NCBI GenBank assembly: GCA_963674755.2
Contig: CAXXVS010000002.1
Coordinates: 2,399,570-2,463,569, forward strand
DNA: 64,000 nt
From: Desulfobacterales bacterium
Lineage (GTDB): Bacteria; Desulfobacterota; Desulfobacteria; Desulfobacterales; UBA5852
Reading direction: 5' to 3'
This document shows positions 28,785-64,000 of this stretch, one piece after another (within the stretch, counting starts at the first letter, position 1; each line of letters begins with the position of its first letter). The notes below the pieces were generated by a model. It was not told the DNA's origin, did no database searches, and saw nothing but the letters and a program-made list of their open reading frames with translations. The translations under genes and the position numbers were made by a program.

Positions 28785-28794
28785 ATTGTTAGCT

Positions 28795-50100: not shown

Positions 50101-50161
50101 GGGTGCACTCCCTTTTGCGACCAGTGCAAAATCCCTCTTGACAATTTTTAGCAATCTATAT

Positions 50162-50177: not shown

Positions 50178-50206
50178 TAGATTAAGGACTCCTAAAAAAC
50201 ATCGCC

Positions 50207-50758: not shown

Positions 50759-50825
50759 CCGGTTACAATAAAAAAGATCGGATCCCCCTTCGGCGGGGCA
50801 GCGCCGGAAACAGGGTGACCAGGAT

Positions 50826-50861
50826 CCGCCCTGCCACTATCAAGTACAGGGCGGTTTTTTT
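50826..50861 (+). terminator. Rho-independent terminator after the DtxR-family gene
   Basis: CCGCCCTG-13 nt-CAGGGCGG followed by T7. Confidence 0.65.
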
Positions 50862-50872
50862 AGCACTTTCTT

Positions 50873-50888
50873 GTTAGACATGCCTAAT
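50873..50888. promoter_or_regulatory. second operator-like box GTTAGACATGCCTAAT
   Basis: 14/16 identical to 50162-50177. It overlaps the possible start codons of the next gene. Confidence 0.45.
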
Positions 50889-51203
50889 ATGCAAAGGGAT
50901 TCAAAACTCATGGGGAAAGACAAGGAGGCAATGATCAGCGCTTTGAGCAACAGTGTCAAGGAATTGCAGAAGGGAATTGAAACGCACTGCTGTCTGTTGG
51001 CTGCGTTGATGGAGGAGCCGCTTGATCTCAGGCGCCTGCAAACCCAGATGGAACAATGCCCCGAGCGCCAGCGGGAACGTCAATTGCGCGAGGCTCTCCA
51101 GGAGGCCATCGAGGTCATCGAGGAAACCCGGCGGTCCTTCAAATCCAAACGGCTCGAAGCCTTGCGCAAAAAACTGACTCAGGTGCTTATTGATCTGGCC
51201 TGA
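50880..51203 (+). CDS. small helical/coiled-coil protein, unknown function (start uncertain: 50871 TTG, 50880 or 50889 ATG)
   Basis: ORF with a charged helical sequence (..RERQLREALQEAIEVIEETRRSFKSKRLEALRKKLTQVL). I recognise no domain. Confidence 0.5.
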   Translation: MPNMQRDSKLMGKDKEAMISALSNSVKELQKGIETHCCLLAALMEEPLDLRRLQTQMEQCPERQRERQLREALQEAIEVIEETRRSFKSKRLEALRKKLTQVLIDLA

Positions 51204-51370
51204 CGCTTAAAACGATTTTCGGCATGTCTTGCGGGTCCCATACCGCTGGCGGTGATGGGAAAAGTGAAGGCGTAACGCGAACGCAACCGCGCTCGGGATA
51301 CGCCTTTTTTGTTGGGAAGGGCCGACCAGGCATGCCTGTCGAGACGCCCGAAGCAAAGGAGATAGAGACC

Positions 51371-52609
51371 ATGAATGAAAAGCAGTCCCTCAAAACCGCC
51401 TCGGATATCCCCCCGACGCCGGAGGTCGCAGCCCGAACCGTCGTCAGGCGCCTGCCCTTCTGGGAAGCGGACGAGTGCTTCAAATGCCCCGTCGTGGGCC
51501 TCTGCCTGAATCTTGCCGAACAAAAAAGGTTGCTGAGGAAAACGGGGGTGGCCGTTACGAAGCGCACCCCTTTCGAGGTCCACGAGATCCTGGTAGCCGG
51601 CGGGCATCAGGAAAACCGCCTGTCCCGGAAAGTCGATCGGATGCTCGAGCGAAAATTCGGTCCCGCAACCGCAGCCCTCTTTGCCCTCGATTCGCAAGCG
51701 TTTCTGGCGCATTTCAAGAGCGCCTTTGAAACCGGCGATTATGCCGGCCCGGTATGGGCGGCGGCCGTCAATCCCCAGTTACCCATGGACACCAAGCGCG
51801 AAATCTTCGGTGTGATCCATATGACCATGCACCAGCATGGGGCCGAGCATCTGCGGTTCAGGCAGAAAATTGCCCGGCAGCAGACCGAAATCGATAAGCT
51901 GCGCCAGCACCTCACGGAAACAGCCCGCGGGCACCGCGACCTGCAAAAACGGTATGAATGCCTGCACCACGCCCAGGCCGGTTTGAAGGCCGGACTGGCC
52001 ATAGCCAAGCGCGAAAGCCAGCAGCTCAGGGAAGCCCTGGTCGGGCGCGACAAGGGGACTACTCTCGACCAGGAGAACCGCTGGCTCAAAGCAGAGCTGG
52101 AGGCGCTGCGCAGCCGGCTCGCGGACAAACAATGCCTGGTAGTGGCCCTGAAGGAAAAACAGCGCCGGCTCGCGGCCGAACTCGATCGCCAGCAGGAGCT
52201 GAACGCGCATTTCAGAAAAGAGATTCAGGAGGCAATGTCCGGAGCCCTGACCTGCAAGACCTGCGATGCCCAATGCCCGGCCTACGATCTATGCCAGCGG
52301 CGTATCCTCATCGTAGGCGGCATGACGCGCATGGAGTCTCTTTATCGCGGGCTCATCGAGGGCAGCGGCGGGATTTTCGACTATCACGACGGCTATCTGC
52401 ACAAAGGCGCCCGCCACCTCGAATCACGCCTGCGGCGGGCGGACGTGGTCCTGTGCCCTGTAAGCTGCAACAGCCACAACGCCTGCTCCGTGGTCAAGAG
52501 CCTGGCCAAGAAACACAACAAGACCGTTCACATGCTTGCCAACTCAAGCTTGAACACCGTTTCCCGGGCCATCTGGGGCGAACAAAGCGATCAACATTCC
52601 CTGAATTGA
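51371..52609 (+). CDS. DUF2325-domain protein with central coiled coil
   Basis: AAGGAG RBS precedes ATG 51371. The C-terminal RILIVGGMTRMESLYRGLIEGSGGIFDYHDG...ADVVLCPVSCNSHNACSVVK matches my memory of DUF2325. The middle ~150 aa is heptad-rich. Confidence 0.7.
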   Translation: MNEKQSLKTASDIPPTPEVAARTVVRRLPFWEADECFKCPVVGLCLNLAEQKRLLRKTGVAVTKRTPFEVHEILVAGGHQENRLSRKVDRMLERKFGPATAALFALDSQAFLAHFKSAFETGDYAGPVWAAAVNPQLPMDTKREIFGVIHMTMHQHGAEHLRFRQKIARQQTEIDKLRQHLTETARGHRDLQKRYECLHHAQAGLKAGLAIAKRESQQLREALVGRDKGTTLDQENRWLKAELEALRSRLADKQCLVVALKEKQRRLAAELDRQQELNAHFRKEIQEAMSGALTCKTCDAQCPAYDLCQRRILIVGGMTRMESLYRGLIEGSGGIFDYHDGYLHKGARHLESRLRRADVVLCPVSCNSHNACSVVKSLAKKHNKTVHMLANSSLNTVSRAIWGEQSDQHSLN

Positions 52610-52621
52610 GAGGAAAACCTG

Positions 52622-52990
52622 ATGAACAGCAAATTCCAAATCGGCATCCACAAAAACAACGATCATTTGCATGTCCTTCCCCGTGGCGACTTCGACGGCA
52701 ATTCTGCCTGGGAATTGGTCCACAAATTGAATGAAACTTACCGCGGGGAAAAAGAGATCATCATCGATACCAGCCGCCTGCGAAAGGTTTGTCCCTTCGG
52801 CCGAACCACCTTCGAATGCCAGATCGACCAAAGCCGCATCCCGCGGAACCGCTTCCTGTTCACCGGCGAAAAGGGCCCGATCCTCGCGCCGGAGGGCTGT
52901 CGGATTTTATCCGCCGGCCGGCCGAAGAGCTGTGGCTGCGATGGCAATTGTGCGGACTGCCATTGCCGCCAACGACGGAAACCCAACTAA
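52622..52990 (+). CDS. STAS-like domain protein with Cys-rich tail
   Basis: HVLPRGDFDGNSAWELVHKL..EIIIDTSRLRKVCPFGRTTFE resembles anti-sigma-antagonist/STAS folds. The tail CGCDGNCADCHC looks metal-binding. Confidence 0.45.
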   Translation: MNSKFQIGIHKNNDHLHVLPRGDFDGNSAWELVHKLNETYRGEKEIIIDTSRLRKVCPFGRTTFECQIDQSRIPRNRFLFTGEKGPILAPEGCRILSAGRPKSCGCDGNCADCHCRQRRKPN

Positions 52991-53006
52991 GAGAGGGGGG
53001 GGTAGC

Positions 53007-53204
53007 ATGGCGACCACTCGAAACAACTATGTCCGTGTCGAATTGTCCGAGGCCACCATCGCCCGACTCCTGGCCCGGGGCGAACTGTGCGCGGCCGATT
53101 TCCGCTGCCCTGACGGCCGGGCCAAGCACTGCCTCTGGCGCCTGGTTCTGGAGAGCTGCCGGGTTGAATCCCATTGCCGAAGCCGCGCTTCCCGGCGGGT
53201 ATAG
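53007..53204 (+). CDS. small hypothetical protein (65 aa, 5 Cys)
   Basis: ATG 53007 is preceded by a G-rich RBS-like stretch. It fills the gap between neighbouring genes. There is no similarity evidence. Confidence 0.3.
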   Translation: MATTRNNYVRVELSEATIARLLARGELCAADFRCPDGRAKHCLWRLVLESCRVESHCRSRASRRV

Positions 53205-53244
53205 TGCGCCCTGCGACATGTGATGAAACGAGGAGAAAAGCACG

Positions 53245-54174
53245 ATGCCAAAACTGACACTTCCCCCTGCTGCGCCTGAAGTTTCTCCGAAACCGCCCTT
53301 GCCGCCGTATCACAGTCCCCAAAACTCCTGGTCGCTATGCCTGGAGGAGCTCTGGCTGGTGTGGAACCGCCTGAAGCTGCAAGGAACGGCCACCACCCTG
53401 CTGGGCGACCGGGACGGCGGCGATACCTGCCACCTGCTGTTTTGCTTCGAAGGCCGTGTCCTGCTGCTGGGGTTCAAGTCCGGCACCGGCAACCCCATGG
53501 ACATCGAGACCGGCCACTGCGCCCTGGTCTACCACCCCCAGGGCTGCCGCTGCATGGCCTGTGCCGGTGAAAACGGGGCCCGGGCGGTCGAAATCCAGTT
53601 CTCGCGGCGTACCCTGCTGCGCCTGATCGGTCCCCACGGCCTGCGCAACCCCCTGATCCGTTCCAAGCATGCCAAGCGTCCCCTCGAAGCCCTGCTCAAA
53701 ATCACCCCGCACATGGACCGCATTCTGCACCAGACCGAGGATCTGTTAACCGGTCACGACGCGGATACCCTCTTTCTGACTTCCAAGGCCATGGAACTCA
53801 TCTGGCTGTTCGACCGCCATTTTCAGCAGCCCCGCAAGCATGGCGTCAGTCGCCGGGATCAGGAAGCCGTCCATGCCGCCCAATCCATTCTGGAGGATCG
53901 CATGACAGCCCCGCCACCCCTTGAAGAGCTGGCCGGCCAGGTCGGCATGAGCCTCTCCAAACTCAAGCAGGTCTTCCCACGGGTGTGCGGCCGGCCCCCT
54001 TATACCTATCTGCGGCAGGCCCGCATGGAGCGCGCCCTCTACCTGATCCGCAGCACCGATATGAGTGTGATCGATGTGGCCTACGAGGTGGGCTACGCCA
54101 GTCCCAGCCAATTTGCACGCGCTTTTGCCGATCAGTTCGGTTTCACACCCTCCCAGGCACGTCACACGGCTTAG
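53245..54174 (+). CDS. AraC-family transcriptional regulator
   Basis: The C-terminal double HTH is present (LEELAGQVGMSLSKLKQVFPRVCGRPPYTYLRQARMERALYLIRSTDMSVIDVAYEVGYASPSQFARAFADQFGFTPSQAR). Confidence 0.85.
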   Translation: MPKLTLPPAAPEVSPKPPLPPYHSPQNSWSLCLEELWLVWNRLKLQGTATTLLGDRDGGDTCHLLFCFEGRVLLLGFKSGTGNPMDIETGHCALVYHPQGCRCMACAGENGARAVEIQFSRRTLLRLIGPHGLRNPLIRSKHAKRPLEALLKITPHMDRILHQTEDLLTGHDADTLFLTSKAMELIWLFDRHFQQPRKHGVSRRDQEAVHAAQSILEDRMTAPPPLEELAGQVGMSLSKLKQVFPRVCGRPPYTYLRQARMERALYLIRSTDMSVIDVAYEVGYASPSQFARAFADQFGFTPSQARHTA

Positions 54175-54206
54175 CAGCTTGCTGAGCATGCGCTGCGGTT
54201 CCGCAG

Positions 54207-54245
54207 GCCCCGGAAACCTCCTCTGGCTTCCGGGGCTTTTTATTT
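54207..54245 (+). terminator. Rho-independent terminator after the AraC gene
   Basis: GCCCCGGAA-12 nt-TTCCGGGGC followed by TTTTTATTT. Confidence 0.6.
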
Positions 54246-54381
54246 GGCTTTTGGGATTAGACAACTCGAACATAGATAGAATAAACAACCATCTCGCCGG
54301 TCGGAAGCGAGTACAACCGCTTCCTCCCCCGGCAGGATTCGCCGCTCAACCGGTCACCATCGAACCCTAAAGGAGCAACAC

Positions 54382-54606
54382 TTGCCGTCCCCGCAACCCC
54401 GAAGCACAATCGCCATCCCGGACGACCATGAACCGATTCTGCGCAAGATTTCCGAACTCTACGAAGACCTGTTCCGCCACGACGGATTCGGCGAACTGCG
54501 GGTGACCATGCGGTTTCTAAAAAAGGGACAAAAAGAGGTGGTCGTGATCTGCGGCAAGGAATTTCGCTTCGTGGTGGACTATCCAGCGAGCATCCGCCGG
54601 GGATAG
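54382..54606 (+). CDS. small hypothetical protein (74 aa)
   Basis: TTG start with AAGGAG 7 nt upstream. I recognise no domain. Confidence 0.4.
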   Translation: MPSPQPRSTIAIPDDHEPILRKISELYEDLFRHDGFGELRVTMRFLKKGQKEVVVICGKEFRFVVDYPASIRRG

Positions 54607-54638
54607 GCACCGTTACCCGACAACAAGGAATAAATCCC

Positions 54639-55646
54639 ATGCTGAAACAATATCGTTTTCCGGGTCGCCGGCCGCAATTCCCCTCGCCGGTCAGGATCGC
54701 AGCCCTGCTCAGCCTCCTGGCAATACTGCTCCTGCCGGCACCCGACCCCGCCCCGGCGGCTTGCCGGTCCAAGGCGCTGGTAAAGCGCCCCATCGTCGTG
54801 ATCGGCGAGCCGCTGGCCGCGGTCTGCCTGCGGTTGAACATCGCTCCCCTGGCCTGGGTGGGTCGCAAGTCCCTCTGGGAGGACGGCGCACGCCTGTCCG
54901 CGGCTTCCGAGGCCCTGGGTTGCCCGGGGCGTCTTTCCGGACCCAAGGGACTGGCCATGATCAAACGCATTCGCGCGTTAGACCCCAAGGCCGTCTATAT
55001 GACGCATCTCAAGTGCCGCTACCGGCCGGATATCGACTATCGCAAGATTCGCAAAGCCCTGCGCGCCGAGGGGATCGAACCGCGCATCATCGCTTTCGAT
55101 AACGATCCCATGGCAGCGGTGCAAGAGTTCAGCGTAGCCCTTGACCGCGCGGCCGACGGCGAGAAGCTTGCCGCGAATTATGAAAAGGCCTTCCAGCGGG
55201 CCCGCACACGGTTGGCTGCCGTTCCCAAAGGCCTGCGCGTGGCCGTGGTGTCCGGCACCTTTCAGACGGCCACGGGCAAATGCTTCACCCGGCTGGAGGC
55301 GGCCGGCGGCTACAGCGACGCCTTTGTGCTGAAAGCCGCCGGGGCCGTCAACGTGGCGGCCGACATCGTGCAGAACAGCGACAAGATCGACAAGGGGCAT
55401 CTCGTCCTGCGGCGGCTGGACCGGGTCCTGGCGGCCCGGCCGGATGTGATCGCCGCCACCGGGGATGCCCTCCCCGTTGCGGTGAAGGTCGCCGGCGCCC
55501 TCAGGCGTTCCGCCTCCCAGGAAGCGGCCCCGGCGGTTTTTGCCCTGCCCCTCTATGTGGGGGCCGATCCCCTGGCCTATCCCGATGTGCTCACCCGCTG
55601 GGCGGTAGCCCTCGAAGCCGCCGCCGCGGTCGGAGATCAGAAATAA
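54639..55646 (+). CDS. exported periplasmic-binding-protein-like protein (possibly BtuF/FecB-type, cluster A)
   Basis: An N-terminal hydrophobic signal is followed by alternating beta-alpha blocks (PIVVIGEP.., ALDPKAVYM.., RVAVVSG.., ARPDVIAATGD) reminiscent of the Peripla_BP_2 fold. The assignment is weak. Confidence 0.4.
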   Translation: MLKQYRFPGRRPQFPSPVRIAALLSLLAILLLPAPDPAPAACRSKALVKRPIVVIGEPLAAVCLRLNIAPLAWVGRKSLWEDGARLSAASEALGCPGRLSGPKGLAMIKRIRALDPKAVYMTHLKCRYRPDIDYRKIRKALRAEGIEPRIIAFDNDPMAAVQEFSVALDRAADGEKLAANYEKAFQRARTRLAAVPKGLRVAVVSGTFQTATGKCFTRLEAAGGYSDAFVLKAAGAVNVAADIVQNSDKIDKGHLVLRRLDRVLAARPDVIAATGDALPVAVKVAGALRRSASQEAAPAVFALPLYVGADPLAYPDVLTRWAVALEAAAAVGDQK

Positions 55647-55683
55647 GCATAAGGCATTGATGCCCTGGCGCTGAACAAGTGCC

Positions 55684-55707
55684 GCGCAGACCCTGGGGGT
55701 GGGTTGC
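55684..55707 (+). promoter_or_regulatory. conserved 24-nt box upstream of pilin paralogue 1
   Basis: GCGCAGACCCTGGGGGTGGGTTGC lies 44 nt before ATG 55752. It is 21/24 identical to the box at 57119-57142. Confidence 0.4.
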
Positions 55708-55751
55708 AGACACAAATAAACACCAACCCTTTCTATCCGGGAGGCATTGTC

Positions 55752-56885
55752 ATGAAACACCGAAAATGTATCTTTACGACGAACGGCTTCACCCTGCTCG
55801 AAATCCTGGTGGTGTTGACGGTCATGGGCTTTCTCATCGCCATGGTGGCCCCCCGCCTGGCCGGCCTTACCAATGATGCCAGCGGCACGGTCTGCGACAC
55901 CAACAAGGGCCGAGCCCGCACCTATGTGGCGGCCTTCTACGAGAAATATGACCGTTATCCCAACGGACTCACCAATCTGGTCATGACCGACGGCACGGAC
56001 CTGGCCGCCGCCAACGCCTCGGATGACGGCTACCAGATCCCCTACTGCTCGGACGACGATCCGGAAAACGGCCCTGAAGTACTCGCCAAGGGTCACAACA
56101 AGCTCTACAAGTTCGTAATCCATCGTCTCAGTCAGGAGGAAGCCGACGAACTCAAAAGCCTGGGCCTCACCCAAGTTTACAACCTCAATGACTACGCTGC
56201 CGATGCTCCCGACCTGAACGGCGCCGCGGCCAACGGCCGTCACAACGCGGCCACAGCCTCGGACGGCGCCCGGGTCAGCAATTGGGGCAACGTCAACGCG
56301 GTCAGCGACCAGCGGCCCTCCATGGAATCCTGCACGCTTGAACAGGGTGTCGGGGTGGCCATGTGCGGCTGTGGCATCGGAGCGGTGGGCGGCACTGCCT
56401 TCACCTACGTGCAGGCGGAACGCGGGTGGGCCGAAGAAGATATCTTCGGCCGCATGGTTTTCGGTCTGGGGCCGGAATCGGAGCTGGTCACCTCGGGCAT
56501 CGTCACCAACGCGGCCCACTGCCCGGGCTCCATCCAGAACGCTGATAACTTCACCTGGGGCGGTTACTACCTGATCCTGCCGCGGCTGGAAGCCACGGTG
56601 GACCGCCTGGAAACGGCCACCTATGCCGGCTTGTGGGGCAGCGGCAGCCTCAACTACACGGCCCTGTCGTCAGACGATCTGGAGGCGGTCTCCTGGCCCA
56701 AGGGCGGAACCACGCCTTCCACCAATTATGGCATCACGGCCAACGCCGACCATTTCAAGGTGCGCAACGGCCTAGGGCTGGGGGATGCCATGGCCGTCTG
56801 GGATTTCGATACCAACCGCCAGCGCTATGACGAGATCTGGGGTATCGACATCATGAACGCCAACCACGTGCTCAACGGCGGCTGA
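55752..56885 (+). CDS. large type IV pilin / GspG-like pseudopilin paralogue 1 (377 aa)
   Basis: GGAGG RBS. The prepilin leader MKHRKCIFTTNG|FTLLEILVVLTVMGFLIAMVAP has the conserved Glu at position 5 of the mature protein. The GspG-like segment AAFYEKYDRYPNGLTNL is followed by a ~300-aa extension. Confidence 0.8.
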   Translation: MKHRKCIFTTNGFTLLEILVVLTVMGFLIAMVAPRLAGLTNDASGTVCDTNKGRARTYVAAFYEKYDRYPNGLTNLVMTDGTDLAAANASDDGYQIPYCSDDDPENGPEVLAKGHNKLYKFVIHRLSQEEADELKSLGLTQVYNLNDYAADAPDLNGAAANGRHNAATASDGARVSNWGNVNAVSDQRPSMESCTLEQGVGVAMCGCGIGAVGGTAFTYVQAERGWAEEDIFGRMVFGLGPESELVTSGIVTNAAHCPGSIQNADNFTWGGYYLILPRLEATVDRLETATYAGLWGSGSLNYTALSSDDLEAVSWPKGGTTPSTNYGITANADHFKVRNGLGLGDAMAVWDFDTNRQRYDEIWGIDIMNANHVLNGG

Positions 56886-57118
56886 CGGAAGGCCGCCCGT
56901 TTATAAAAAACAGTCGGCCCACGGAAAGGAGGTGATGGCCGGAAACCGAACCCAACGGGCCGCCCGGGGCGGTCCGCCTGTCACGGCAGGGCGCCGGAAG
57001 GAAACCTTGCATTTCGCCAAAGCCAAACCCCGGGCAACCGGGGGACGGAAAGCCGCGGGTCCCGCGGGGACGGCCGGGCTGCCGGAATCTCTGACAATCT
57101 GTATTTCAACCGCCTGCG

Positions 57119-57142
57119 GCGCAGACCCTGTGGCGGGGTTGC
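57119..57142 (+). promoter_or_regulatory. conserved 24-nt box upstream of pilin paralogue 2
   Basis: GCGCAGACCCTGTGGCGGGGTTGC lies 43 nt before ATG 57186. It can fold as GCAGACCC-loop-GGGGTTGC. Confidence 0.4.
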
Positions 57143-57185
57143 CGCTGCGCAAGACCATTTTTTCTACTTTAAAGGAGAGACTGCA

Positions 57186-58292
57186 ATGCAACGCCACACC
57201 AACCGTATGACCCGCAACCAAGGTTTTACCCTGCTCGAAATCCTGGTGGTCCTCACCATCATGGGTTTCCTCATCGCCATGGTGGCCCCGCGTCTGGCCG
57301 GCATCTCCAGTGAAGCCGTGGACACGGTATGCGACACCAACCAGAACCGCACCATCACGATGGTGGCCGCTTATTTTGAAAGAACCGGCAAGTTCCCCAA
57401 CAAGCTGACCAACCTTGTTGCGGTGGAGGGTACCGATTGGGATGACGCAACTTACTATACCCCGAGCGTCAGCGATGGCGACCCGGATAATGGCCAGGAA
57501 ACCCTGGCCGCGGAATTCGGCGAGCGCGTCCATCCGATGATCCACTACCTGAGCGCGGACGAAGCCCAGGAACTGGCCGACATGGGCATCAAAAAACTGT
57601 TCAACCTCAACGCCTATGACAACTTCACCACCGACGGAACCGACCACGGCCCGGATGGAACAACGCCTATTGCCGATGCCAACCAAGGCAACCCCATGGA
57701 AGAAGTCACCCCGGATGATGTGGATTATACGACGGGACAATTTGCCGTCATGATGTCCGGCATGGGCGTCGATTCCGCTGGCGCTTGGCAGACGGAAACC
57801 CTTACCGGCTTTGGCGAAGCCCAATTCCTAGGCCGTATCGTCCTTGGTTTCGGTCCGGAAAACGGTCTGGTCACGTCCGGTATCGTCACCAACGCGGCCC
57901 ATTGCCCCGGTGGTCTGCAGAATTCCGACAACATCACCTACAACGACTACAACCTGATCGTGCCCCGGCTGCAATCCACGGTAGATCGTTTGGACGAAAC
58001 CACTCCTGAGATCACGGACCTGGCGACCTCAATCACCGGCATCCAGTACGCGGCCTATGGGTACACCGAAAATTTTGACACGAGTAGCGGTATTACGGCG
58101 GCCACGTTTGATACCGACGGTACCGTTCTCACCTCACCGACCGGCATAAAAACCAGGTTGATGACCTTTGGTGCCCAGGAAAACTACGAGTACTCCACCA
58201 TGTGCCCCGAGGGTCATATGTATCCGGCTGACGATTCCGATTTCTGGGCAGTCAATCCGGACAACGCTAGTTTTGTCGCTACGGACTTCTGA
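57186..58292 (+). CDS. large type IV pilin / GspG-like pseudopilin paralogue 2 (368 aa)
   Basis: AAAGGAGAG RBS. The leader is MQRHTNRMTRNQG|FTLLEILVVLTIMGFLIAMVAP. It shares VCDTN, FGxGPExxLVTSGIVTNAAHCPG and PRLxxTVDRL blocks with paralogue 1. Confidence 0.8.
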   Translation: MQRHTNRMTRNQGFTLLEILVVLTIMGFLIAMVAPRLAGISSEAVDTVCDTNQNRTITMVAAYFERTGKFPNKLTNLVAVEGTDWDDATYYTPSVSDGDPDNGQETLAAEFGERVHPMIHYLSADEAQELADMGIKKLFNLNAYDNFTTDGTDHGPDGTTPIADANQGNPMEEVTPDDVDYTTGQFAVMMSGMGVDSAGAWQTETLTGFGEAQFLGRIVLGFGPENGLVTSGIVTNAAHCPGGLQNSDNITYNDYNLIVPRLQSTVDRLDETTPEITDLATSITGIQYAAYGYTENFDTSSGITAATFDTDGTVLTSPTGIKTRLMTFGAQENYEYSTMCPEGHMYPADDSDFWAVNPDNASFVATDF

Positions 58293-58328
58293 TAAAGAAT
58301 CCTGAAAGACCTTAACAGGAGCGTATCA

Positions 58329-58360
58329 GCGGGGAGGGCAACCTCCCCGCTCTCAACTTT
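58329..58360 (+). terminator. hairpin terminator/attenuator after pilin paralogue 2
   Basis: GCGGGGAGG-GCAA-CCTCCCCGC is followed by TCTCAACTTTT. Confidence 0.5.
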
Positions 58361-58444
58361 TAGATAAAACAGATCCGATCCGCCGCTCAGCACTTTCACC
58401 GTTTCCTAGCAGAGCACGGGAACGAGAGGTAACCAACAAACCAA

Positions 58445-60514
58445 TTGAAACAATCCGCCAATAAAACGCACCCCCAATCCGCCTTCACCCTCCTCGAAGT
58501 GCTCATCGTGCTCTTTATCCTGGGGATGATCGCCGCCATGGCCGGGCCGGCCATGGGCATCCTGGACGATGCCCAGCGGGCACGCATCACCCGGGAGCGC
58601 ATGGCGGCCGTCCGGCGGGCCATCCTGGGACCGGACGACCGTTTTGATACCCACGGCCGGCCCCTCATCGGCGGTTATGCAGGCGACATGCAGGCCTGGC
58701 CCGATTTGTGGGAAGCGCGGGCCGAGATCAAACCCGATTTTACCGGCAGCGGCTGGGACACCCCCTCTTCCCTGACCGCCGGCCTGGGACAGGGGCCGGA
58801 CTACACAGTGGATCCCGGCCATGTCTTCTTTCGTCCGTCCGGGCATTTCACCAAGAGCCGCTGGCACTGGAACATTCCGTATCGCCGGCTCTACGACGAT
58901 ACGACGACTGACAGCGACCACATCGGCGGTCTGGCCACGGAGAACGAGGGCCAGCCCCGGGGGCTGTGGACCCGCTTTCCCGAGGAGCTGAACGTGGACC
59001 TCACCGATCATGCGGCCCCGGGCCTGGACCTGGGCGAGAACTGGAAAGGGCCCTATATCGCCCCGCCCCTGAGAGACAACCCCTCGGACAGCGACCACTG
59101 GGCCGAAAACGATGGCATGTACGATAACCTGGCGCCGGCCTGGCAAACTTCGGGTGCCCATGCCGGCTACGAAACCTGGGAGGAGGGCGACTACGCTCCC
59201 GCCGGCGAACTGGGCGAGCTTTTCGACGACAAAGAGGCCTTCCGCCTGCTCCAGACCGAAGGCCGGCTGACCGACGGCTGGGGCCGGGCCCTGCGCTTTT
59301 TCATCACCGACGATGCGGACCACGCCGGGAGCACGGTCTTCTGGATTCTCTCCGAGGGGCCCGACGGCGATGGGCGCTACCCCACTAAAGGCTCGTGCAG
59401 CGGCCATGTCTGGACCGTGGACGCCGCCGACACCATGGCCACGGCCTATGATCCGGACGCCGACAAGAACCAGGACAACATCGTACTCAAGCTTTTCTCC
59501 CGCGACTGGGAAGCGATCTTCGAAGAGGAGACCCGCCGCCGGGAAGCGCTCACCGACGCCATTTTGGAGCACATCCGCCGGGCCCTGGCCGGAGAGAGCC
59601 CCGGCGGCCTCAACAGCGGCTACACCGGGGCTTTTTGCGCCTGGCCGGCCCTGTTCCGCTGGGAGGACAACGGCACGCCGGACGATGAGACGGACGACCA
59701 TTGGGACAATGCCGACGATGCCGACATAGCCTACACCAAGGGCCAGCCCCGGGGGTTGTGGACCGCCACCCCCAACACGGACGACACGGACGATGACCTG
59801 GCCGCCTCCCGGTGGGGCATCGGCTGGCGCCATGCCTGCCTTACCCGCCCGGGGGGCGTAGGTGAGGAAGAATCTGTACGGGATGCCTGGGGCCGGGAAA
59901 TCCTCTTTTTCCACGATGCGGCCAACGGCCTGCTGCTGGTGCTCTCCCGGGGCGCGGACGGCGGCTTTGATTTCGGCACCACCAATGCGGCCCGGACCGA
60001 ACCCGAGGATTTTGTCGAAGTGGTAGATGTGACCGGCTACGACCCCACCACGGTCGTCAATGCCGACAACCGCTATGCCGTGATCGCCGAAAACGACTGG
60101 CAGCCCGGGTTTTTCCGGCTGTCGGGCTTCACGGTCCTGAACGCCTACCTGGGCGATGTCGCCTACGGCACCACCAAGGCCTGCTTTTTCCGGTCCGACG
60201 GCACCCCTGTGGCCGACATCGACCTACTGGCGCCCACCGCTCTTACCGACGAGGACGGCGACCTGGTGGCGGACGACTGGTCCCGGGGGGACGGCACGGC
60301 TGCCGATCCGGCTTTCAATTATGACGACACGACACCCCAGACCGCTCTTTCCGGGGCCCGCTATCTGGTGTTCTGGAACGATGCGGACGGCAGCGACACC
60401 ATCGACAGCGGCGAAGACTTTACCGCGCTGATTTACACGGTAACGGCCTCGGCCGGCAGCGGCCAGTATGAACCGGTGCAGGTGGACACGGCCGATTTCC
60501 AGCCGCTGCCCTGA
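58445..60514 (+). CDS. giant pseudopilin-like protein (689 aa) with N-terminal pilin-type hydrophobic helix
   Basis: TTG 58445 is the only possible start, because TAA lies 5 codons upstream. The N-terminus is MKQSANKTHPQSA|FTLLEVLIVLFILGMIAAMAGP, with Ala instead of Gly before Phe. The remainder is very acidic, with many D-rich runs. Confidence 0.7.
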   Translation: MKQSANKTHPQSAFTLLEVLIVLFILGMIAAMAGPAMGILDDAQRARITRERMAAVRRAILGPDDRFDTHGRPLIGGYAGDMQAWPDLWEARAEIKPDFTGSGWDTPSSLTAGLGQGPDYTVDPGHVFFRPSGHFTKSRWHWNIPYRRLYDDTTTDSDHIGGLATENEGQPRGLWTRFPEELNVDLTDHAAPGLDLGENWKGPYIAPPLRDNPSDSDHWAENDGMYDNLAPAWQTSGAHAGYETWEEGDYAPAGELGELFDDKEAFRLLQTEGRLTDGWGRALRFFITDDADHAGSTVFWILSEGPDGDGRYPTKGSCSGHVWTVDAADTMATAYDPDADKNQDNIVLKLFSRDWEAIFEEETRRREALTDAILEHIRRALAGESPGGLNSGYTGAFCAWPALFRWEDNGTPDDETDDHWDNADDADIAYTKGQPRGLWTATPNTDDTDDDLAASRWGIGWRHACLTRPGGVGEEESVRDAWGREILFFHDAANGLLLVLSRGADGGFDFGTTNAARTEPEDFVEVVDVTGYDPTTVVNADNRYAVIAENDWQPGFFRLSGFTVLNAYLGDVAYGTTKACFFRSDGTPVADIDLLAPTALTDEDGDLVADDWSRGDGTAADPAFNYDDTTPQTALSGARYLVFWNDADGSDTIDSGEDFTALIYTVTASAGSGQYEPVQVDTADFQPLP

Positions 60515-60545
60515 ACCGCTGAGGGAGCAGGCGCATGTTGGACGA

Positions 60546-62096
60546 ATGGACGCGAATGGATTCTGTGCATTGAAAATCGAACGCATGCTGACACAATGGA
60601 TTCCCCGGCGGGTGCTGGCCGTGGAGCTGGCCGGGGACGACATCCGGGCCGCCCTGGTGCGCCGCAAGGGCGGCCGTTTCGAGGTGCTGGATTTCGCCGC
60701 CCTCAAGCGGCCCGATCCCCAGGACGATCTGCCCAATGTCGAGACCCTCAAGGCCCTGGGCGACCGCCTGGGTCAGACCACCGGACCGGCCGTGCTGGTG
60801 ACGCCCCTGGCGCGGGCCTTCGAGCTGCTCATGGACCGCAAGAAGATCAGCGGCCTGAAGCACTACCAGCTGCTTGAAACCGTCAAGTGGGAGGTGGAGC
60901 CTTACACGGGCATCACCGGAGCCAGCGCCCTGATCGGCGTGGAACCCGAACAGCGGCCCAAAGCGCGCCCCGGCGAAATCGTCTCCGAGGATGAGGACGA
61001 ACAGGCCACCGTCACCGTGGCGGCCATCGAGCGCAATGTCTACCGGGCGGCCCGGGAGCGTTTCAAGGCTGCGGGCTTCGAGCTGGTGCGCATCTATCCG
61101 CCGGAGGTGTCCTTTTACTACGCCTTGTACCTGGCGCCGCTGGAAACGCCCCGGGCCCTGCTGGAAGTGGGGCCGGACTATTCCAATTTTGCCATCCTGC
61201 GCGGCGGGGTGCCCGAGCAAATCAACACCCTCAGCCTGAGCCTGGATGCCATGACGGCCCACCTGAGCGGGGAGGCGGTGTCCCATGAGCTGGAAGACAG
61301 CCTGCGTTTCACCGTGCGCCAGACACCGGAGCCCGAACCCCTGGTGATTTCCGGACCGGGCGCCGGAAACGCCGCGGTGGTGGAATTCATTGGCGGGTTT
61401 AGCCCCAACGGGGCCCGCCCCCTAACCTTGTCCCGCACGGCCGGATTGGCCGACGCCCGGGACGAAAGCGCCCACGCCGTTTTCGGCACCACCGTGGGGG
61501 CCGCCGTACGCGAGTTGCAGGGGCGGCAGGCACGCCAGGCCGGCATCGACGACCGTATGCCCCTGGTGCCCCGTCTGAAGCAAAGCGTCTACCTGGCGCC
61601 CCTGGCCACGGCCTTGGTGCTGGGGGTGCTGCTGGCCGGCCATTACCAATTCATGAAACACCAGGACCGGGTCTACAAGGCCCGCATCACCACCCTGAAG
61701 GCGGACCTCAAGATCCGTCAGGCCGAAATCGCCAAATACGAGGATCTGATCAAAGAGCAGGACGCGCTGCGCAAGGAGATCGAGATGGCCAAGAAGCGTT
61801 TGGCCTACATCGAGGGTCAGGCCGACGAACAATTGGACCACCTCATCGCCTGCATTGCCGGCCTGGCGGATGCGCTCTCGGATCAGATCGTCCTGAAAGC
61901 CATCCTCCAGAACGGTTCGGACACCTATACCGTGACCGGCAGCGCCTTCGACCTTGATGCGCTGGGCGTCTACGCCACCCGGCTCCAGGAGACGGCCTGG
62001 TGCGAAGCGGCCGTACTGCAAAAGCTTGAGAAGGGGGACGACGGCCAGCGCCTGGATTTCGAAATGACCCTCAAAGCGCCCCGCGAGGCCACATGA
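60546..62096 (+). CDS. PilM-like / PilN-like fusion (GspL-like assembly protein); start uncertain (60546 or 60585)
   Basis: The N-terminal actin-like region (VLAVELAGDDIRAALV.., LLEVGPDYSNFAIL) is followed by a single TM helix (VYLAPLATALVLGVLLAG) and a coiled-coil periplasmic part. Confidence 0.7.
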   Translation: MDANGFCALKIERMLTQWIPRRVLAVELAGDDIRAALVRRKGGRFEVLDFAALKRPDPQDDLPNVETLKALGDRLGQTTGPAVLVTPLARAFELLMDRKKISGLKHYQLLETVKWEVEPYTGITGASALIGVEPEQRPKARPGEIVSEDEDEQATVTVAAIERNVYRAARERFKAAGFELVRIYPPEVSFYYALYLAPLETPRALLEVGPDYSNFAILRGGVPEQINTLSLSLDAMTAHLSGEAVSHELEDSLRFTVRQTPEPEPLVISGPGAGNAAVVEFIGGFSPNGARPLTLSRTAGLADARDESAHAVFGTTVGAAVRELQGRQARQAGIDDRMPLVPRLKQSVYLAPLATALVLGVLLAGHYQFMKHQDRVYKARITTLKADLKIRQAEIAKYEDLIKEQDALRKEIEMAKKRLAYIEGQADEQLDHLIACIAGLADALSDQIVLKAILQNGSDTYTVTGSAFDLDALGVYATRLQETAWCEAAVLQKLEKGDDGQRLDFEMTLKAPREAT

Positions 62097-62629
62097 GGAA
62101 ACTGTCCCGTTTTGAAAAATTCGGCCTCATGGCGGCCGTCATCGTGGCCTGCACCTTCTTTTACGTGAAGAAGGTCTACGAGCCCCAGGAGGCGCGTCTG
62201 AAGAAGACCATCGCCACCCTCAACAAGGTGGTGGGCCAGATCAACAACCTCGAGGAGGTGCCGCCGGCCGCCACGGTCAAGCGCTCCCTGAAGCGCTACC
62301 GCAAGGACCTGGAAGCGCTGTCGGATCAGTTGCAGGGCACCCAGATGCAAACCGGTGCGGAGCGGGAGGTGACCAAGCTGCTGAGCACCATCAACCGCAG
62401 AATGGCTTGCCACGGTCTGCGGGTCAATTCCCTGACGCCGGGGGGCGCCAGCACGGACGAACTGCTGGAGTGGAATCTCTTTCAGTTGAACCTGGAGGGC
62501 TCGTTCCAGGGCTTCCTGAATTTTGTGCGCGACCTGAAGGATCTGAAAGATGCGGTCAAAATCGAAAAGGTGCAAATGGAAAGGGGCGACGGCCGCCTCC
62601 TGCACATCCAACTCAATCTGATGATCTGA
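62093..62629 (+). CDS. PilO/GspM-like protein
   Basis: ATGA overlap with the upstream gene. It has an N-terminal TM helix (FGLMAAVIVACTFFYV), a coiled coil, and a ferredoxin-like C-terminal part. Confidence 0.6.
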   Translation: MRKLSRFEKFGLMAAVIVACTFFYVKKVYEPQEARLKKTIATLNKVVGQINNLEEVPPAATVKRSLKRYRKDLEALSDQLQGTQMQTGAEREVTKLLSTINRRMACHGLRVNSLTPGGASTDELLEWNLFQLNLEGSFQGFLNFVRDLKDLKDAVKIEKVQMERGDGRLLHIQLNLMI

Positions 62630-62644
62630 CAATAGAGGAGTACC

Positions 62645-63136
62645 ATGCTGAAGAAAATGCTTTACAAGGCCATCGGACCGCGGCCCCGGCCAAAGGCCGT
62701 CTCCCTGGCGAAACCCCGCAGACGGTTGGCTTGCGCAGTGCTCGTGTGGTCCATGGCCCTGGCCGGTCTGTCCCTGGTCTCGGCTTTGGCGGCGGCGGCC
62801 GCAGGGCCGGTCGCACCGGAACGCAATCCCTTTGAGACGGTGCCCTCCGCGGAAAACCCCTATCGCCATGAGGAGGCCATCCAGAAGCTGACCGTCCAGG
62901 GCATCGTGCGGGCCGAAAAGACCGAGCGGATCATCGTACGCATCGCGGACATCGACGGTCTGGCGGTCCTCAAAAAGGGCGACAAGATTGCCCTGCGGCT
63001 CGACGGCCTGGTCCACACCTTCACCGTGGGCCGCATCCAGGCCAAAAGCGTCTGGTTTCAGGCCCTGCCCGCACGGGATGCCGCGCCGGATGACGATCGG
63101 ATCCGTCGCCAGTCCTACGAGGTGTTTGTCCAATGA
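62645..63136 (+). CDS. PilP/GspC-like periplasmic protein
   Basis: It has a TM/signal segment, and the C-terminal beta-domain (LTVQGIVRAEKTERIIVRIADIDGLAVLKKGDKI) resembles PilP/HR domains. Its position before the secretin fits. Confidence 0.5.
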   Translation: MLKKMLYKAIGPRPRPKAVSLAKPRRRLACAVLVWSMALAGLSLVSALAAAAAGPVAPERNPFETVPSAENPYRHEEAIQKLTVQGIVRAEKTERIIVRIADIDGLAVLKKGDKIALRLDGLVHTFTVGRIQAKSVWFQALPARDAAPDDDRIRRQSYEVFVQ

Positions 63137-64000
63137 AGGACCTGATCCGGTGGTTGACGATTGTCGTTCTCCTGGCCGTGGTCGCCGGCTGCGCCGGCAC
63201 GGTGCGGAACATTAAGGAAAAGATGCAGTCCATGCAGGGCCCCACCTTCGCGACCCACGGCATCCAGGAAGAAATGATTGAGGGGGGAGGCGGGGAAGAG
63301 CCGCCGCCGCGCCACACATCACCCATCGTGCGGATCATCAAGGGCACCCCTGTAGAAAACATGGATGCGGCCCGCGCCAAAATGGTCCAGGAAGCCTCGG
63401 TGGCCCTTGTTGGCTTGCAGGCCAAGCTGGACTCCCTCATCCTGCGCGACGTGAACGTGCGGGTGATCGCCGAACTGCTTACCGAAATATGCGGTTACAA
63501 CGTGGTAGCCACCAACACGGTGGCCGGCCGGCCCATCGACATCTACCTCCAGAACATCAGCCTGCGGGAGGCCCTGGAGGCTGTCTGCCGGCTCAACAAC
63601 CTCTGGTATCGGGAAGGCCAGGGCATCATTACGCTCATGACCCGCGATGAATACGTACGCGACATCCAGGTGCGCCAAAGCGAACAGACCCGGGCTTTTT
63701 ATGCCCGCTATACCAATGCCGCCGACATGGCCAAAGTCATCCAGGCCGCCATGGGCGAGGAGGTCCATCTTGAGGTGATCGAGGACGAGGAGATCTACGG
63801 CCACATCGATCCCGAGGAGGAGGCAGAAGTGGGGGACGGGGAATATGACGCCCCGGTGCTGGGCGGCGGAACGGTAGAAAGTAGTGTGGCCGCCGGCAGG
63901 GCCGGTGCGGGGCCAACGGCGATCGGCAGGGCCGGATTCGATTCACCGGAAGCCGCCCGGACGGCCGAGGGCAAACGGCCCCTGCTGGCCATCCTTACCG
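63133..64000 (+). CDS. secretin (PilQ/GspD family) lipoprotein, N-terminal part; continues beyond the window
   Basis: This frame is not in the ORF track because it has no stop in the window. ATGA overlap at 63133, a lipobox LLAVVAGC, and an N0/secretin-N-like block LRDVNVRVIAELLTEICGYNVVATNTVAGRPIDIYLQNISLREALEAVCRLNNLWYREGQGIITL. Confidence 0.75.
   Translation, partial: MKDLIRWLTIVVLLAVVAGCAGTVRNIKEKMQSMQGPTFATHGIQEEMIEGGGGEEPPPRHTSPIVRIIKGTPVENMDAARAKMVQEASVALVGLQAKLDSLILRDVNVRVIAELLTEICGYNVVATNTVAGRPIDIYLQNISLREALEAVCRLNNLWYREGQGIITLMTRDEYVRDIQVRQSEQTRAFYARYTNAADMAKVIQAAMGEEVHLEVIEDEEIYGHIDPEEEAEVGDGEYDAPVLGGGTVESSVAAGRAGAGPTAIGRAGFDSPEAARTAEGKRPLLAILT

Follow-up and report, generated by a model that had tools for sequence, protein, structure and literature searches.

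The window, by which we mean the whole 64,000-nt stretch of Desulfobacterales DNA that was analysed, carries two genes whose products a sequence-only reading had described as paralogous prepilins of ~370 aa (Table 1). Both open reading frames were recovered on the + strand as described, and their products are 45% identical over 289 residues (BLASTP, E 4e-76), with final ~80 residues that cannot be aligned; the frame of paralogue 1 also admits an alternative start at TTG 55704. The canonical prepilin leader G|FTLLE is present in both translations (MKHRKCIFTTNG|FTLLE in paralogue 1 and MQRHTNRMTRNQG|FTLLE in paralogue 2), as are the shared motifs on which the reading was based: by translation and alignment, VCDTN, AAFYE/AAYFE, YPNGLTNLV/FPNKLTNLV, SDDDPENG/SDGDPDNG, YNLNDY/FNLNAY and PRLEATVDRL/PRLQSTVDRL (paralogue 1/paralogue 2) and the block FGLGPE..LVTSGIVTNAAHCPG..QNADNFT all occur in both proteins. 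The mature proteins are acidic, with a pI of 4.5 for paralogue 1 and 4.1 for paralogue 2.

Table 1. Genes and RNA elements of the large-pilin locus, in window coordinates.
Feature	Position	Strand	Description
p74, small conserved ORF	54382-54606	+	74 aa; normally directly 5' of large-pilin gene
335-aa protein	54639-55646	+	Between p74 and pilin 1; 54% identical homologue at same place in L001
Leader RNA hairpin, copy 1	55681-55713	+	GCAGACCC-UGGGGGU-GGGUUGC; 5' UTR of paralogue 1
Paralogue 1, large prepilin	55752-56885	+	ATG start, 377 aa; mature 365 aa, 39.0 kDa
Cyclic-dinucleotide riboswitch aptamer	57013-57087	+	GEMM-I clan CL00126; 5' leader of paralogue 2
Leader RNA hairpin, copy 2	57116-57148	+	29 nt 3' of aptamer, 38 nt 5' of paralogue 2 ATG
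Paralogue 2, large prepilin	57186-58292	+	368 aa; mature 355 aa, 38.3 kDa
GC-rich 10-bp stem-loop	58328-58351	+	AGCGGGGAGG-GCAA-CCUCCCCGCU; after paralogue 2
689-aa pilin-like protein	58445-60514	+	Leader ...QSA|FTLLE; mature 676 aa, 74 kDa; N_methyl above cut-off
PilM-PilN fusion	60585-62096	+	GspL-like architecture; C-terminal PilN Pfam domain; weak GspL match
PilO/GspM-like alignment protein	62093-62629	+	PF04350 PilO, E 6.8e-11; weak T2SSM match
p163, membrane-anchored protein	62645-63136	+	163 aa; PilP/GspC position, between PilO and secretin in 8 loci
Secretin, 5' part	63133-64000	+	Gene runs past window end; lipoprotein-type signal (MKDLIRWLTIVVLLAVVAGC)

Only the first ~70 residues of the large pilins resemble anything known. 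In both proteins a short leader with positive charge ends in Gly(-1) and is followed by F+1, E+5, G14 and P22, and both exceed the cut-offs of Pfam N_methyl PF07963 (22.6 bits for paralogue 1 and 31.2 bits for paralogue 2; cut-off 21.2), the sole Pfam match in either protein, and of TIGR02532 (22.0 and 26.0 bits, respectively; cut-off 16.3). These features support placing both predicted products in the type IV pilin class. The best solved relative of the pilin helix in a PDB sequence search is Geobacter PilA-N (9egp, E 8e-11; 7tgg, E 5.5e-7), in a match that spans residues 11-77 (67 residues) and includes the C-terminal Y-x-x-x-x-x-YPN motif; MshA (9lab, E 1e-4) and GspG (5wda, E 7e-4) match more weakly. 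The earlier description of this segment as GspG-like holds for the N-terminal helix, whose top NCBIfam match is GspG, but the score is below the cut-off (TIGR01710, 34.2 and 36.5 bits against 88.85; E 2e-8 to 4e-9; residues 12-74 only) and Geobacter PilA-N is closer. We rejected a GspG identity on these 34-36 bits, on the lack of a PF08334 (GspG) match in a Pfam scan of the large pilins, and on the lack of type II secretion system (T2SS) gene context in the loci examined. GspG is moreover 134 aa long against ~370 aa here, and its likeness to the large-pilin system lies in the helix and in the GspL-like/GspM-like partner architecture. In Geobacter, which belongs to the same phylum, helix and head are split between PilA-N and PilA-C, whereas here they are fused; PilA-C is present in the PDB within filament entry 6vk9, which our search returned only as PilA-N.

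Beyond the helix, both proteins continue into an acidic head of ~300 residues that is conserved family-wide. The head could not be assigned to a known domain in the sequence-only reading, and it likewise found no match in Pfam, NCBIfam, PDB sequence profiles or Foldseek searches of the PDB. Specifically, a head profile retrieved nothing from PDB sequences at E <= 10, Pfam at E <= 5 gave no consistent match to the head, and the AlphaFold2 model of paralogue 1 (pLDDT 86.1, pTM 0.82) had a best Foldseek match to the PDB at E 2.3, with TM <= 0.1. Residues 33-50 of this model have pLDDT < 50, where a continuous alpha-1 helix is expected. Among 1.84 billion proteins, a head-only profile identified 120 clusters (50% identity), of which the full-length ones are 276-410 aa long with the head nearly always starting at residue ~55-105, the remainder being fragments. 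None of the 120 clusters has the head outside pilins, whether stand-alone or in another architecture, and every named source is a member of the Desulfobacterota, in line with the phylum restriction that the sequence-only reading had raised as a question. A modular pilin bearing a grafted stand-alone domain was considered and rejected, the head having no homologue outside pilins among these clusters. The size of the subunits is also unusual: 1,955 type IVa (T4aP) major pilins range from 42 to 297 aa in mature form, with a mean of 141 (PMC11046646), against 355 and 365 aa here. Even the "large" PilA of M. xanthus has 208 aa. A type IVa major pilin is expected to measure about 100-300 aa when mature and to have an alpha-beta-roll head that can be recognised against solved pilins; the present proteins are longer, no solved pilin could be matched to their head, and membership of this class was rejected.

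A conserved cysteine pair had also been noted, and a disulfide between the two residues suggested. C48 is present in 114 of 117 family members and C257 in 102; of the members that have C48, 12 lack C257, and in four of these C48 is the sole cysteine. The reported pair holds only in part, and co-variation among the 117 members gives no backing to a C48-C257 disulfide.

The leaders of the large-pilin genes contain two RNA elements. The aptamer, for which RF03167 (c-di-GMP-I-GGC) was the best model in a scan of positions 50000-64000 (66.1 bits, gathering score 59, E 4.6e-14), lies in sense orientation 99 nt upstream of the paralogue 2 ATG. It resembles c-di-GMP-I/GEMM-I riboswitches (RF01051) in its full-length match (model positions 1-80) and in its placement ahead of a surface-structure gene, within the 5' leader, the typical site of GEMM (PMC7266159). 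It departs from the RF03167 GGC variant at model position 37, which is A instead of the consensus G, and in being followed by a separate conserved hairpin; model position 10 is G. If position 10 is equated with G20, as we assume in view of the published Vc2 structure, positions 10 and 37 would form a canonical c-di-GMP site; a GGC variant could instead bind another ligand. Homologous aptamers lie upstream of large-pilin genes in related loci L002 (two), L008 and L009. No riboswitch was found at E <= 0.1 in L001, L003 or L005, nor any aptamer upstream of the paralogue 1 leader hairpin, so RNA-based control by c-di-GMP is not universal in this family.

The second element, the leader hairpin, precedes both paralogues and is also present where the aptamer is absent. 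Its exact motif (CAGACCC-N(5-9)-GGGTTGC) occurs twice in the window against 0.01 expected, and a relaxed form occurs exactly once, 60-100 nt 5' of the first large-pilin gene, in 12 of 15 related loci checked. The consensus has compensatory changes at 4 pairs (RNAalifold), and a U-run lies 8 nt downstream of copy 2. At the other end of the pilin genes, the hairpin previously reported after paralogue 2 proved to be real, with a 10-bp GC stem, z = -3.0 for the fold of 58293-58400, and conservation in eight related loci: a near-identical hairpin (GGCGGGGAGG..CCTCCCCGCC) lies 20-45 nt past the last large-pilin gene in L001, L002, L006, L007, L008, L009 and L013, and a different GC hairpin takes this position in L010. 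A simple intrinsic-terminator scan did not call the window hairpin because its U-run begins 7 nt past the stem. Its likely role is to uncouple expression of the pilins from that of the machinery genes, as an attenuator, terminator or 3' stabiliser. The riboswitch, the leader hairpin and the cross-locus conservation of the 3' hairpin are additions to the sequence-only reading.

The genes downstream of the pilins form a conserved cluster. The number of large pilins per locus ranges from one to three. In 11 related loci these are followed by the 689-aa pilin-like gene, PilM-PilN and PilO in the same order, with p163 detected in 8 of the 11; a secretin comes next in 9, the contigs of the remaining two ending before that position, and a secretin homologue was detected in 11 loci. 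The 689-aa pilin-like gene, always 3' of the large pilin(s), belongs to an orphan family of its own (157 homologues when clustered at 90%, almost all of them 650-760 aa long). Its AlphaFold2 model (pLDDT 86.0) matched nothing in the PDB better than E 0.3 by Foldseek, and its sequence has no profile similarity to the large-pilin head; we regard it as a candidate tip or initiator subunit. The PilM-PilN frame is open from 60468, and its homologues align from ~residue 40, corresponding to ATG 60585; syntenic homologues in 11 loci are 35-66% identical. p163 has no Pfam, NCBIfam or PDB match, and its putative PilP-like assignment comes from position and sequence pattern only. The secretin orthologue in L001 has 623 aa and matches PF00263 Secretin at E 4e-37.

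Upstream of the pilins, p74 has homologues beside the pilin in L003, L005, L006, L007, L009, L010 and L012 (42-60% identity, tblastn) and no Pfam or NCBIfam match; its sole PDB match, a designed repeat protein, was judged spurious. The 335-aa protein, which has no Pfam match in the window copy and a weak, sub-threshold Peripla_BP_2 match in the L001 copy, is possibly a periplasmic binding protein. It is probably not a core component, since it was found only in the window and in L001. A DtxR-family iron-dependent repressor lies near the cluster, and FeoB is nearby in L001.

The motors are visible in related loci. The cluster of L008 encodes a PilT-family ATPase (TIGR01420, 439.7 bits; cut-off 319.1) together with a PilB/GspE-like ATPase in which a c-di-GMP motif of MshE type is recognised (NF053729, 45.5; cut-off 38); PilT-like ATPases take the same position in L010, L013 and L081, and the Desulfobacter hydrogenophilus cluster also encodes a T2SSF (PilC) platform and a parvulin. 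For the window system, genes for PilT, PilB and PilC would lie beyond the window end, as suggested by synteny only. No small pilin gene, no prepilin peptidase gene and no GspC, H, I, J or K homologue was seen in any cluster examined. Cultured carriers include Desulfobacter hydrogenophilus, Desulfuromonas thiophila, Desulfatiferula olefinivorans, Desulfobotulus alkaliphilus and Desulfobulbus alkaliphilus; on present evidence, the cluster appears confined to sulfate- and metal-reducing bacteria of the Desulfobacterota.

We propose, with a probability of about 55%, that the two genes encode the major filament subunits of a c-di-GMP-controlled, Desulfobacterota-specific type IV filament system. 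A major-pilin role, as implied by the sequence-only reading, is plausible because the large pilin is the first gene of the operon, is followed by a conserved hairpin, and is accompanied by no small pilin in the loci examined. As predicted from sequence, each subunit would consist of a class-III signal peptide and an alpha-1 polymerisation helix, followed by the family-specific acidic globular head. Paralogue 1 belongs to an accessory subtype ("TNKGR") found in only some loci and may be an accessory duplicate that serves as an alternative or co-polymerising subunit. The subtype of paralogue 2 ("TNQNR...CPEGH") is the one that single-pilin loci resemble, as the pilin of every such locus (L006-L010, L013) scores higher against paralogue 2 than against paralogue 1.

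In the mechanism that we envisage for these major subunits, a housekeeping prepilin peptidase would cut after Gly-1, and the PilB/MshE-like ATPase and PilC platform would extract the subunits from the inner membrane and polymerise them, assembly proceeding via the PilM-N/PilO/PilP-like alignment complex and the lipoprotein secretin. The 689-aa protein would probably prime or cap the fibre, like the single large minor pilin of type IVb pili, and the PilT-family ATPase would retract it. The riboswitch (in a subset of genomes), the leader hairpin and the post-gene hairpin would set pilin expression apart from that of the machinery. Given the c-di-GMP riboswitch and the MshE-type motif in a relative's ATPase, the fibre is most likely made at high c-di-GMP, and would then most likely serve surface attachment or biofilm formation. 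What the analysis shows directly is the sequence features, the distribution of the family, the synteny, the RNA elements and the lack of known homologues for the head; processing, polymerisation, surface exposure, ligand identity and adhesive role are all inferred here.

An unlikely alternative is that the large pilins serve an atypical type II secretion system as its major pseudopilins, forming a short periplasmic pseudopilus that pushes substrate through the secretin with no external fibre. Several sources annotate them as "type II secretion system protein", and the helix has the GspG match described above; the PilM-PilN fusion and PilO have their weak GspL and T2SSM matches, weak T2SSG matches occur in 10 of 38 members of the 689-aa family, and the assembly ATPase of a relative scores slightly higher against GspE (499 bits) than against PilB (487 bits). 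Geometry also leaves room for this explanation. With the usual rise of ~10 Å, we estimate that 39-kDa subunits would give a fibre ~10 nm wide, which exceeds the channels of known secretins, so its passage is questionable. However, all GspG/H/E/L matches fall far below curated cut-offs, the ATPase scoring below the PilB cut-off as well, and the cluster has no conserved candidate substrate gene. The lack of GspC/H/I/J/K genes in the clusters examined and the PilT-family ATPase of related loci, which is no T2SS feature, indicate that the machine around the pilins is of another kind than a type II secretion system, and the MshE-type motif is typical of pili.

Less probable still, the two proteins could be scarce pilins, modular or tip-located, that present a binding or enzymatic module on a fibre whose major subunit, such as a canonical PilA, is encoded elsewhere. 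Characterised pilins of this size are usually minor ones, for example GspK, TcpB/CofB and S. sanguinis PilB/PilC. None of the 1,955 surveyed T4aP major pilins exceeds 297 aa when mature (PMC11046646). Against this stand the first-gene position with its conserved hairpin, the retention of E5, G14 and P22, and a cluster that encodes its own complete machine with no other small pilin in the loci examined. The head, unlike grafted modules, never occurs stand-alone or in another context, and a tip or minor role would already be filled by the larger 689-aa pilin-like protein.

We consider it highly improbable that these are conductive e-pilins related to Geobacter PilA for extracellular electron transfer: the helix has Geobacter PilA-N as its nearest solved relative, the hosts include Desulfuromonadales among the Desulfobacterota, and the DtxR-family and FeoB genes lie nearby, but a head of 300 residues would bury the helical core or space it out, and the aromatic residues do not fit. 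The published definition of an e-pilin asks for at least 9.8% aromatics, stretches free of them no longer than 22 aa, and aromatic residues at positions 1, 24, 27, 50/51 and 32/57 (bioRxiv 10.1101/668343). The two pilins have 9.0% and 9.6% FWY and longest aromatic-free stretches of 38 and 34 residues, and positions 24, 27 and 32 are all non-aromatic; membership of the e-pilin class was rejected on these grounds.

As major filament subunits, the large pilins can be compared with several known systems. They share with type IVa pili the short Gly-ending leader, F1/E5/G14/P22, N_methyl, a hairpin after the pilin gene, PilM/N/O-type partners and a secretin in the window and, in related loci only, PilT, PilC and a PilB-like ATPase. 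They differ in lacking the FimU/PilVWX/PilY1 set, in the fusion of PilM and PilN, and in an assembly ATPase that in relatives scores below the PilB cut-off. The MSHA pilus of Vibrio is similar in its helix, in the MshE-type motif of the L008 ATPase and, likely, in c-di-GMP control, whereas its gene content and order are different, its pilin head is unrelated, the large-pilin cluster has no MshB/C/D/O/P/Q-like set, and a PilT gene lies inside that cluster. The composition may resemble that of type IVb systems (TcpA/TcpB, CofA/CofB), with one major pilin type, a very large pilin-like protein encoded directly downstream and no four-member minor-pilin set. Type IVb leaders are long, whereas large-pilin leaders are short with F+1, in the style of type IVa pilins and T2SS, and we found no sequence or fold similarity to type IVb pilins.

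Few prokaryotic nanomachines are as widespread as type IV filaments, whose versatility is usually credited to small major pilins combined with specialised minor ones. More tentatively, and at odds that we place somewhat short of even, the present proteins could exceed in size all major type IV pilins known so far, forming an unusually thick fibre with a new head fold in an unclassified, Desulfobacterota-confined filament lineage under riboswitch and leader-hairpin control. Such a lineage would mix type IVa signal peptides, a GspL-like PilM-N fusion, an MshE-like c-di-GMP-binding ATPase and PilT with a type IVb-like pairing of one major and one giant minor pilin. It may possibly be tied to metal or mineral-surface lifestyles, because DtxR-family and iron-transport genes are neighbours. 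If this holds, polymerising subunits of 39 kDa would extend the size and fold range of major pilins and pose the mechanical question of how a ~10 nm fibre passes a secretin. Sulfate-, sulfur- and metal-reducing bacteria, which are of environmental importance and have a part in biofilms, corrosion, syntrophy and mineral attachment, would also gain a new subtype of filament. The system is open to experiment through its RNA elements: the GEMM-I aptamer has an under-studied variant as its best model, and the covarying leader hairpin, present even without the aptamer, is undescribed.

Codon bias places no mark of high expression on the two pilin genes (Nc 40-43, against 34-40 for neighbouring genes). 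Both subtypes were, in addition, assembled as Trinity transcripts (P0010, P0087) in a eukaryote transcriptome data set, so large pilins are transcribed somewhere.

The sequence-only reading had described two paralogous large prepilins at 55752-58292, and this description holds: both open reading frames lie at these positions on the + strand, every motif quoted for them is found in both proteins, and paralogues 1 and 2 share 45% identity over their first ~290 residues (E 4e-76), diverging over the last ~80 in a pairwise alignment. Pfam recognizes N_methyl alone in the two proteins, above cut-off in both. The mature products are acidic (paralogue 1, 365 aa, 39.0 kDa, pI 4.5; paralogue 2, 355 aa, 38.3 kDa, pI 4.1), and the family alignment separates two subtypes, the ‘TNKGR’ type of paralogue 1 and the ‘TNQNR ... 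QCPEGH’ type of paralogue 2; in single-pilin loci, the large pilin is nearer to paralogue 2.

Coordinates of the features discussed, in window positions except for the related loci of other genomes (L numbers)
Feature	Position	Strand	Remarks
DtxR-family iron-dependent repressor	50207-50758	+	
461-aa DUF2325 protein	51224-52609	+	Cys-rich segment
AraC regulator	53245-54174	+	
p74, small protein upstream of paralogue 1	54382-54606	+	74 aa
Leader hairpins	55681-55713 and 57116-57148	+	conserved motif, compensatory changes
Large prepilin paralogue 1	55752-56885	+	377 aa, leader MKHRKCIFTTNG/FTLLE (translation)
c-di-GMP-I-GGC aptamer	57013-57087	+	RF03167
Large prepilin paralogue 2	57186-58292	+	368 aa, leader MQRHTNRMTRNQG/FTLLE (translation)
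Post-gene GC stem-loop	58328-58351		
689-aa pilin-like protein	58445-60514	+	starts with TTG; leader QSA/FTLLE
Secretin gene, 5' part	from 63133		cut by window end; lipoprotein signal
IS21-family insertion sequence	21805-24284	+	
IstA transposase	21805-23484	+	rve core and Mu-transposase C-terminal domain
IstB helper ATPase	23481-24284	+	
KAP-family P-loop NTPase	26558-28699	-	713 aa, in low-GC island
Leader hairpin in relatives	L002 367 and 1834; L003 9929; L006 9897; L007 8633; L008 9900; L009 9944; L010 9867; L011 9923; L012 1783; L013 9922; L081 7717; L082 991		

The label ‘GspG-like’ suits the N-terminal helix but not the whole protein, whose 34-36 bits against a GspG cut-off of 88.85 leave both pilins outside GspG. 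NCBIfam matches (GspG, GspH, ComGC and Myxococcus PilA) were limited to residues ~11-74 and fell far under their cut-offs. When the family profile was searched against all PDB sequences the helix alone matched, with Geobacter PilA-N first (9egp, E 8e-11, the alignment running through the C-terminal YPN motif common to both), followed by MshA (E 1e-4) and GspG (E 7e-4). A profile of the head, the ~300-aa part beyond this helix, returned zero PDB matches at E <= 10, and comparison of the head with Pfam gave no consistent match even at E <= 5. An AlphaFold2 model of the pilin, built from a 43-sequence alignment, is confident (pLDDT 86.1, pTM 0.82); its best Foldseek match among 350,542 PDB chains reached only E 2.3, with TM <= 0.1. 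The head had been called unassignable from the sequence, and NCBIfam, PDB sequence, Pfam and Foldseek-PDB comparisons likewise found no described domain in it; judged against PDB chains alone, the predicted structure is provisionally a new fold.

A word-indexed search yielded at least 330 family clusters at 90% identity, nearly all of 350-400 aa, and every organism-named source was a member of the Desulfobacterota (Desulfoluna, Desulfatiferula, Desulfuromonas thiophila, Desulfonatronovibrio, Desulfonatronum, Desulfobulbus and Thermodesulfobacteriota MAGs). Scanning of genomes added Desulfobacter, Desulfocapsa, Desulfosarcinaceae, Desulfobotulus alkaliphilus, Desulfobulbus alkaliphilus and one Geobacter-labelled MAG, as well as two MAG contigs labelled ‘archaeon’ and ‘Proteobacteria’ that are probably mis-binned or loosely named. 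An exhaustive HMMER search of 1.84 billion representatives with the head-only profile recovered just 120 clusters (50% identity). Full-length matches are 276-410 aa long, with the head starting at residue ~55-105 in nearly all, and the remainder are fragments; no head thus occurs without a pilin helix in front of it. More distant members match profile positions 1-222 and no further, which makes the C-terminal ~80 residues the variable portion of the head. Trinity transcripts of both subtypes occur in a eukaryote transcriptome set (family members P0010 and P0087), a faint hint that large pilins are transcribed. Full-text literature searches found no paper describing the pilin family or its cluster, and database labels of the large pilins are generic only.

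Gene order was compared by tblastn of the window proteins against 13 full-length loci, with genes past the window end taken from relatives. The order is rigid: one to three large pilins, the 689-aa pilin-like protein, a PilM-PilN fusion, PilO, a small PilP-position protein and a secretin. Downstream in relatives stand a PilT-family ATPase (TIGR01420, 439.7 bits vs. a cut-off of 319.1) and a PilB/GspE-like ATPase that scores under both equivalog cut-offs and carries an MshE-type c-di-GMP-binding motif (NF053729, 45.5 vs. a cut-off of 38); the Desulfobacter hydrogenophilus cluster (CP036313.1, 858929-881046), whose large pilin is 362 aa, also encodes a T2SSF platform protein and a parvulin-type isomerase. 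Genes for GspC/H/I/J/K, a FimU/PilVWX/PilY1 set and a small pilin were not seen in the clusters examined. Both assemblies of D. hydrogenophilus split the PilB-like assembly ATPase (positions 18022-19671 of L081, the locus of this species) into two gene calls, of 349 and 197 aa; the cultured strain may thus carry a frameshifted or inactivated gene, a point that bears on its use as a model organism.

The simplest account of the sequence, synteny and predicted structure, on which the proposed functions are likewise based, is that the large pilins polymerise into a dedicated type IV filament specific to their lineage. This filament would be produced at high c-di-GMP, most likely for attachment or biofilm formation, and is proposed to work like a type IVa/MSH pilus, with the 689-aa protein as putative initiator or tip subunit and paralogue 1 as a possible accessory alternative or co-subunit. 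In contrast to ordinary T4a major pilins, the large pilins stand out by size and head: a survey of 1,955 T4aP major pilins gives mature lengths of 42-297 aa with a mean of 141 (PMC11046646), and paralogues 1 and 2, if major pilins, would be the largest known by comparison with that survey. By our own estimate, a fibre built from 39-kDa subunits would be ~10 nm wide and strain known secretin channels, which keeps alive the unlikely alternative that the large pilins build a periplasmic, T2SS-like pseudopilus. A role as minor or tip pilins is more doubtful still, because none of the clusters examined contains another major pilin gene. Conductive e-pilins were also considered and rejected, as aromatics of 9.0-9.6%, aromatic-free gaps of 34-38 residues and no aromatic at 24, 27 or 32 place both proteins outside the published criteria.

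Located in the 300-nt gap between the pilin genes, and therefore in the leader of paralogue 2, is a GEMM-I-clan aptamer that matches RF03167 (c-di-GMP-I-GGC) at full length (66.1 bits vs. 59, E 4.6e-14) and is the sole Rfam match across the 64-kb window. This class was reportedly defined by Weinberg et al. in 2017. In the cmscan alignment, A occupies model position 37 (vs. G in the GGC consensus) and G occupies position 10; set beside the Vc2 structure, these bases presumably mark a canonical c-di-GMP site, not one of cGAMP or variant type. Large-pilin genes of the related loci L002 (both genes), L008 and L009 have equivalent aptamers in front of them, and none was detectable at E <= 0.1 in L001, L003 or L005. 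A cobalamin riboswitch (RF00174, 68.8 bits) at 2185-2388 (-) of L007, a few kb upstream of the pilus cluster, is probably unrelated to it.

Both pilin leaders also contain a hairpin with the motif GCAGAC(C/U)C-N7-G(G/A)GUUG, present in two exact copies in the window vs. 0.01 expected. Of 15 related loci checked, 12 have it exactly once, 60-100 nt before the first large-pilin gene, with or without an aptamer. The motif likely acts as RNA because it shows G-U pairs and compensatory changes, the latter in 4 of 11 pairs. The lower stem's 3' half (UUUGUACUU) shows complementarity, in several loci, to AAGUACAAA at the site of ribosome binding and translation start, a hint that this apparently undescribed hairpin may be a translational switch. 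A sigma-54 promoter was rejected for the shared upstream motif, its GG-to-GC spacing being, by eye, 1 base short in leader 1 and 3 short in leader 2. A metagenome scan with a degenerate hairpin pattern found no large pilin or FTL[LI]E ORF downstream in any of at least 120 loci, which are therefore taken as chance matches.

The hairpin noticed after paralogue 2 proved real: in seven loci this GC stem-loop follows the last large-pilin gene with hardly a base changed, and in L010 a different GC hairpin takes its place. It fits the usual major-pilin arrangement, with expression uncoupled from downstream genes. In the predicted folds a second conserved element is visible 3' of this hairpin, an inverted repeat round GGTGAAA-GC-TTTCACC (CCGGTGAAAACGCTTTCACCGG in L002, similar in L007 and L008), of which the window (58390-58420) keeps CTTTCACCG.

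A disulfide suggested for the conserved cysteine pair drew no support from co-variation across 117 family members. C48 is present in 114 and C257 in 102; 12 members keep C48 without C257 (as sole cysteine in four), and odd cysteine numbers are common. C48, which becomes Cys36 on maturation, may serve some other purpose. In family alignment A1 an acidic loop, S-D-x-D-P-(D/E)-N-G-x-E, is invariant or nearly so and the trio H124/E130/E133 is invariant; these residues may bind Ca2+ or another metal, as sites in GspG and PilY1 do. One family member gave a marginal EF-hand match.

The 689-aa protein, with 24 Trp and many invariant W/G/D positions, belongs to a separate orphan family of 157 clusters whose consensus is G/FTLLE, vs. 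Ala at -1 here. Its AlphaFold2 model (pLDDT 86) gave nothing better than E 0.3 in Foldseek, and 10 of 38 family members show weak T2SSG matches. Profile-profile comparison showed no kinship with the pilin head.

Upstream of the pilins, a variable set comprising the DtxR-family repressor, a 110-aa protein, the DUF2325 protein, a 122-aa protein, the AraC regulator and p74 is present in some loci only; its 50207-54174 (+) portion recurs with the pilus cluster in several. Together with FeoB near the cluster in L001, this set suggests a tie to metal or iron status. Small proteins related to p74 (42-60% identity) lie directly upstream of a large-pilin gene in seven related loci, with a pair of such genes, of 80 and 79 aa, in D. 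hydrogenophilus. Searches with p74 gave no family match, and its PDB match, a designed repeat protein, was dismissed as spurious; p74 may act as a dedicated regulator or chaperone.

Elsewhere in the window, a low-GC island (24000-30000, GC 0.38-0.50 vs. about 0.60 elsewhere), in which several ORFs have no family match, adjoins the IS21 element and was probably acquired horizontally.
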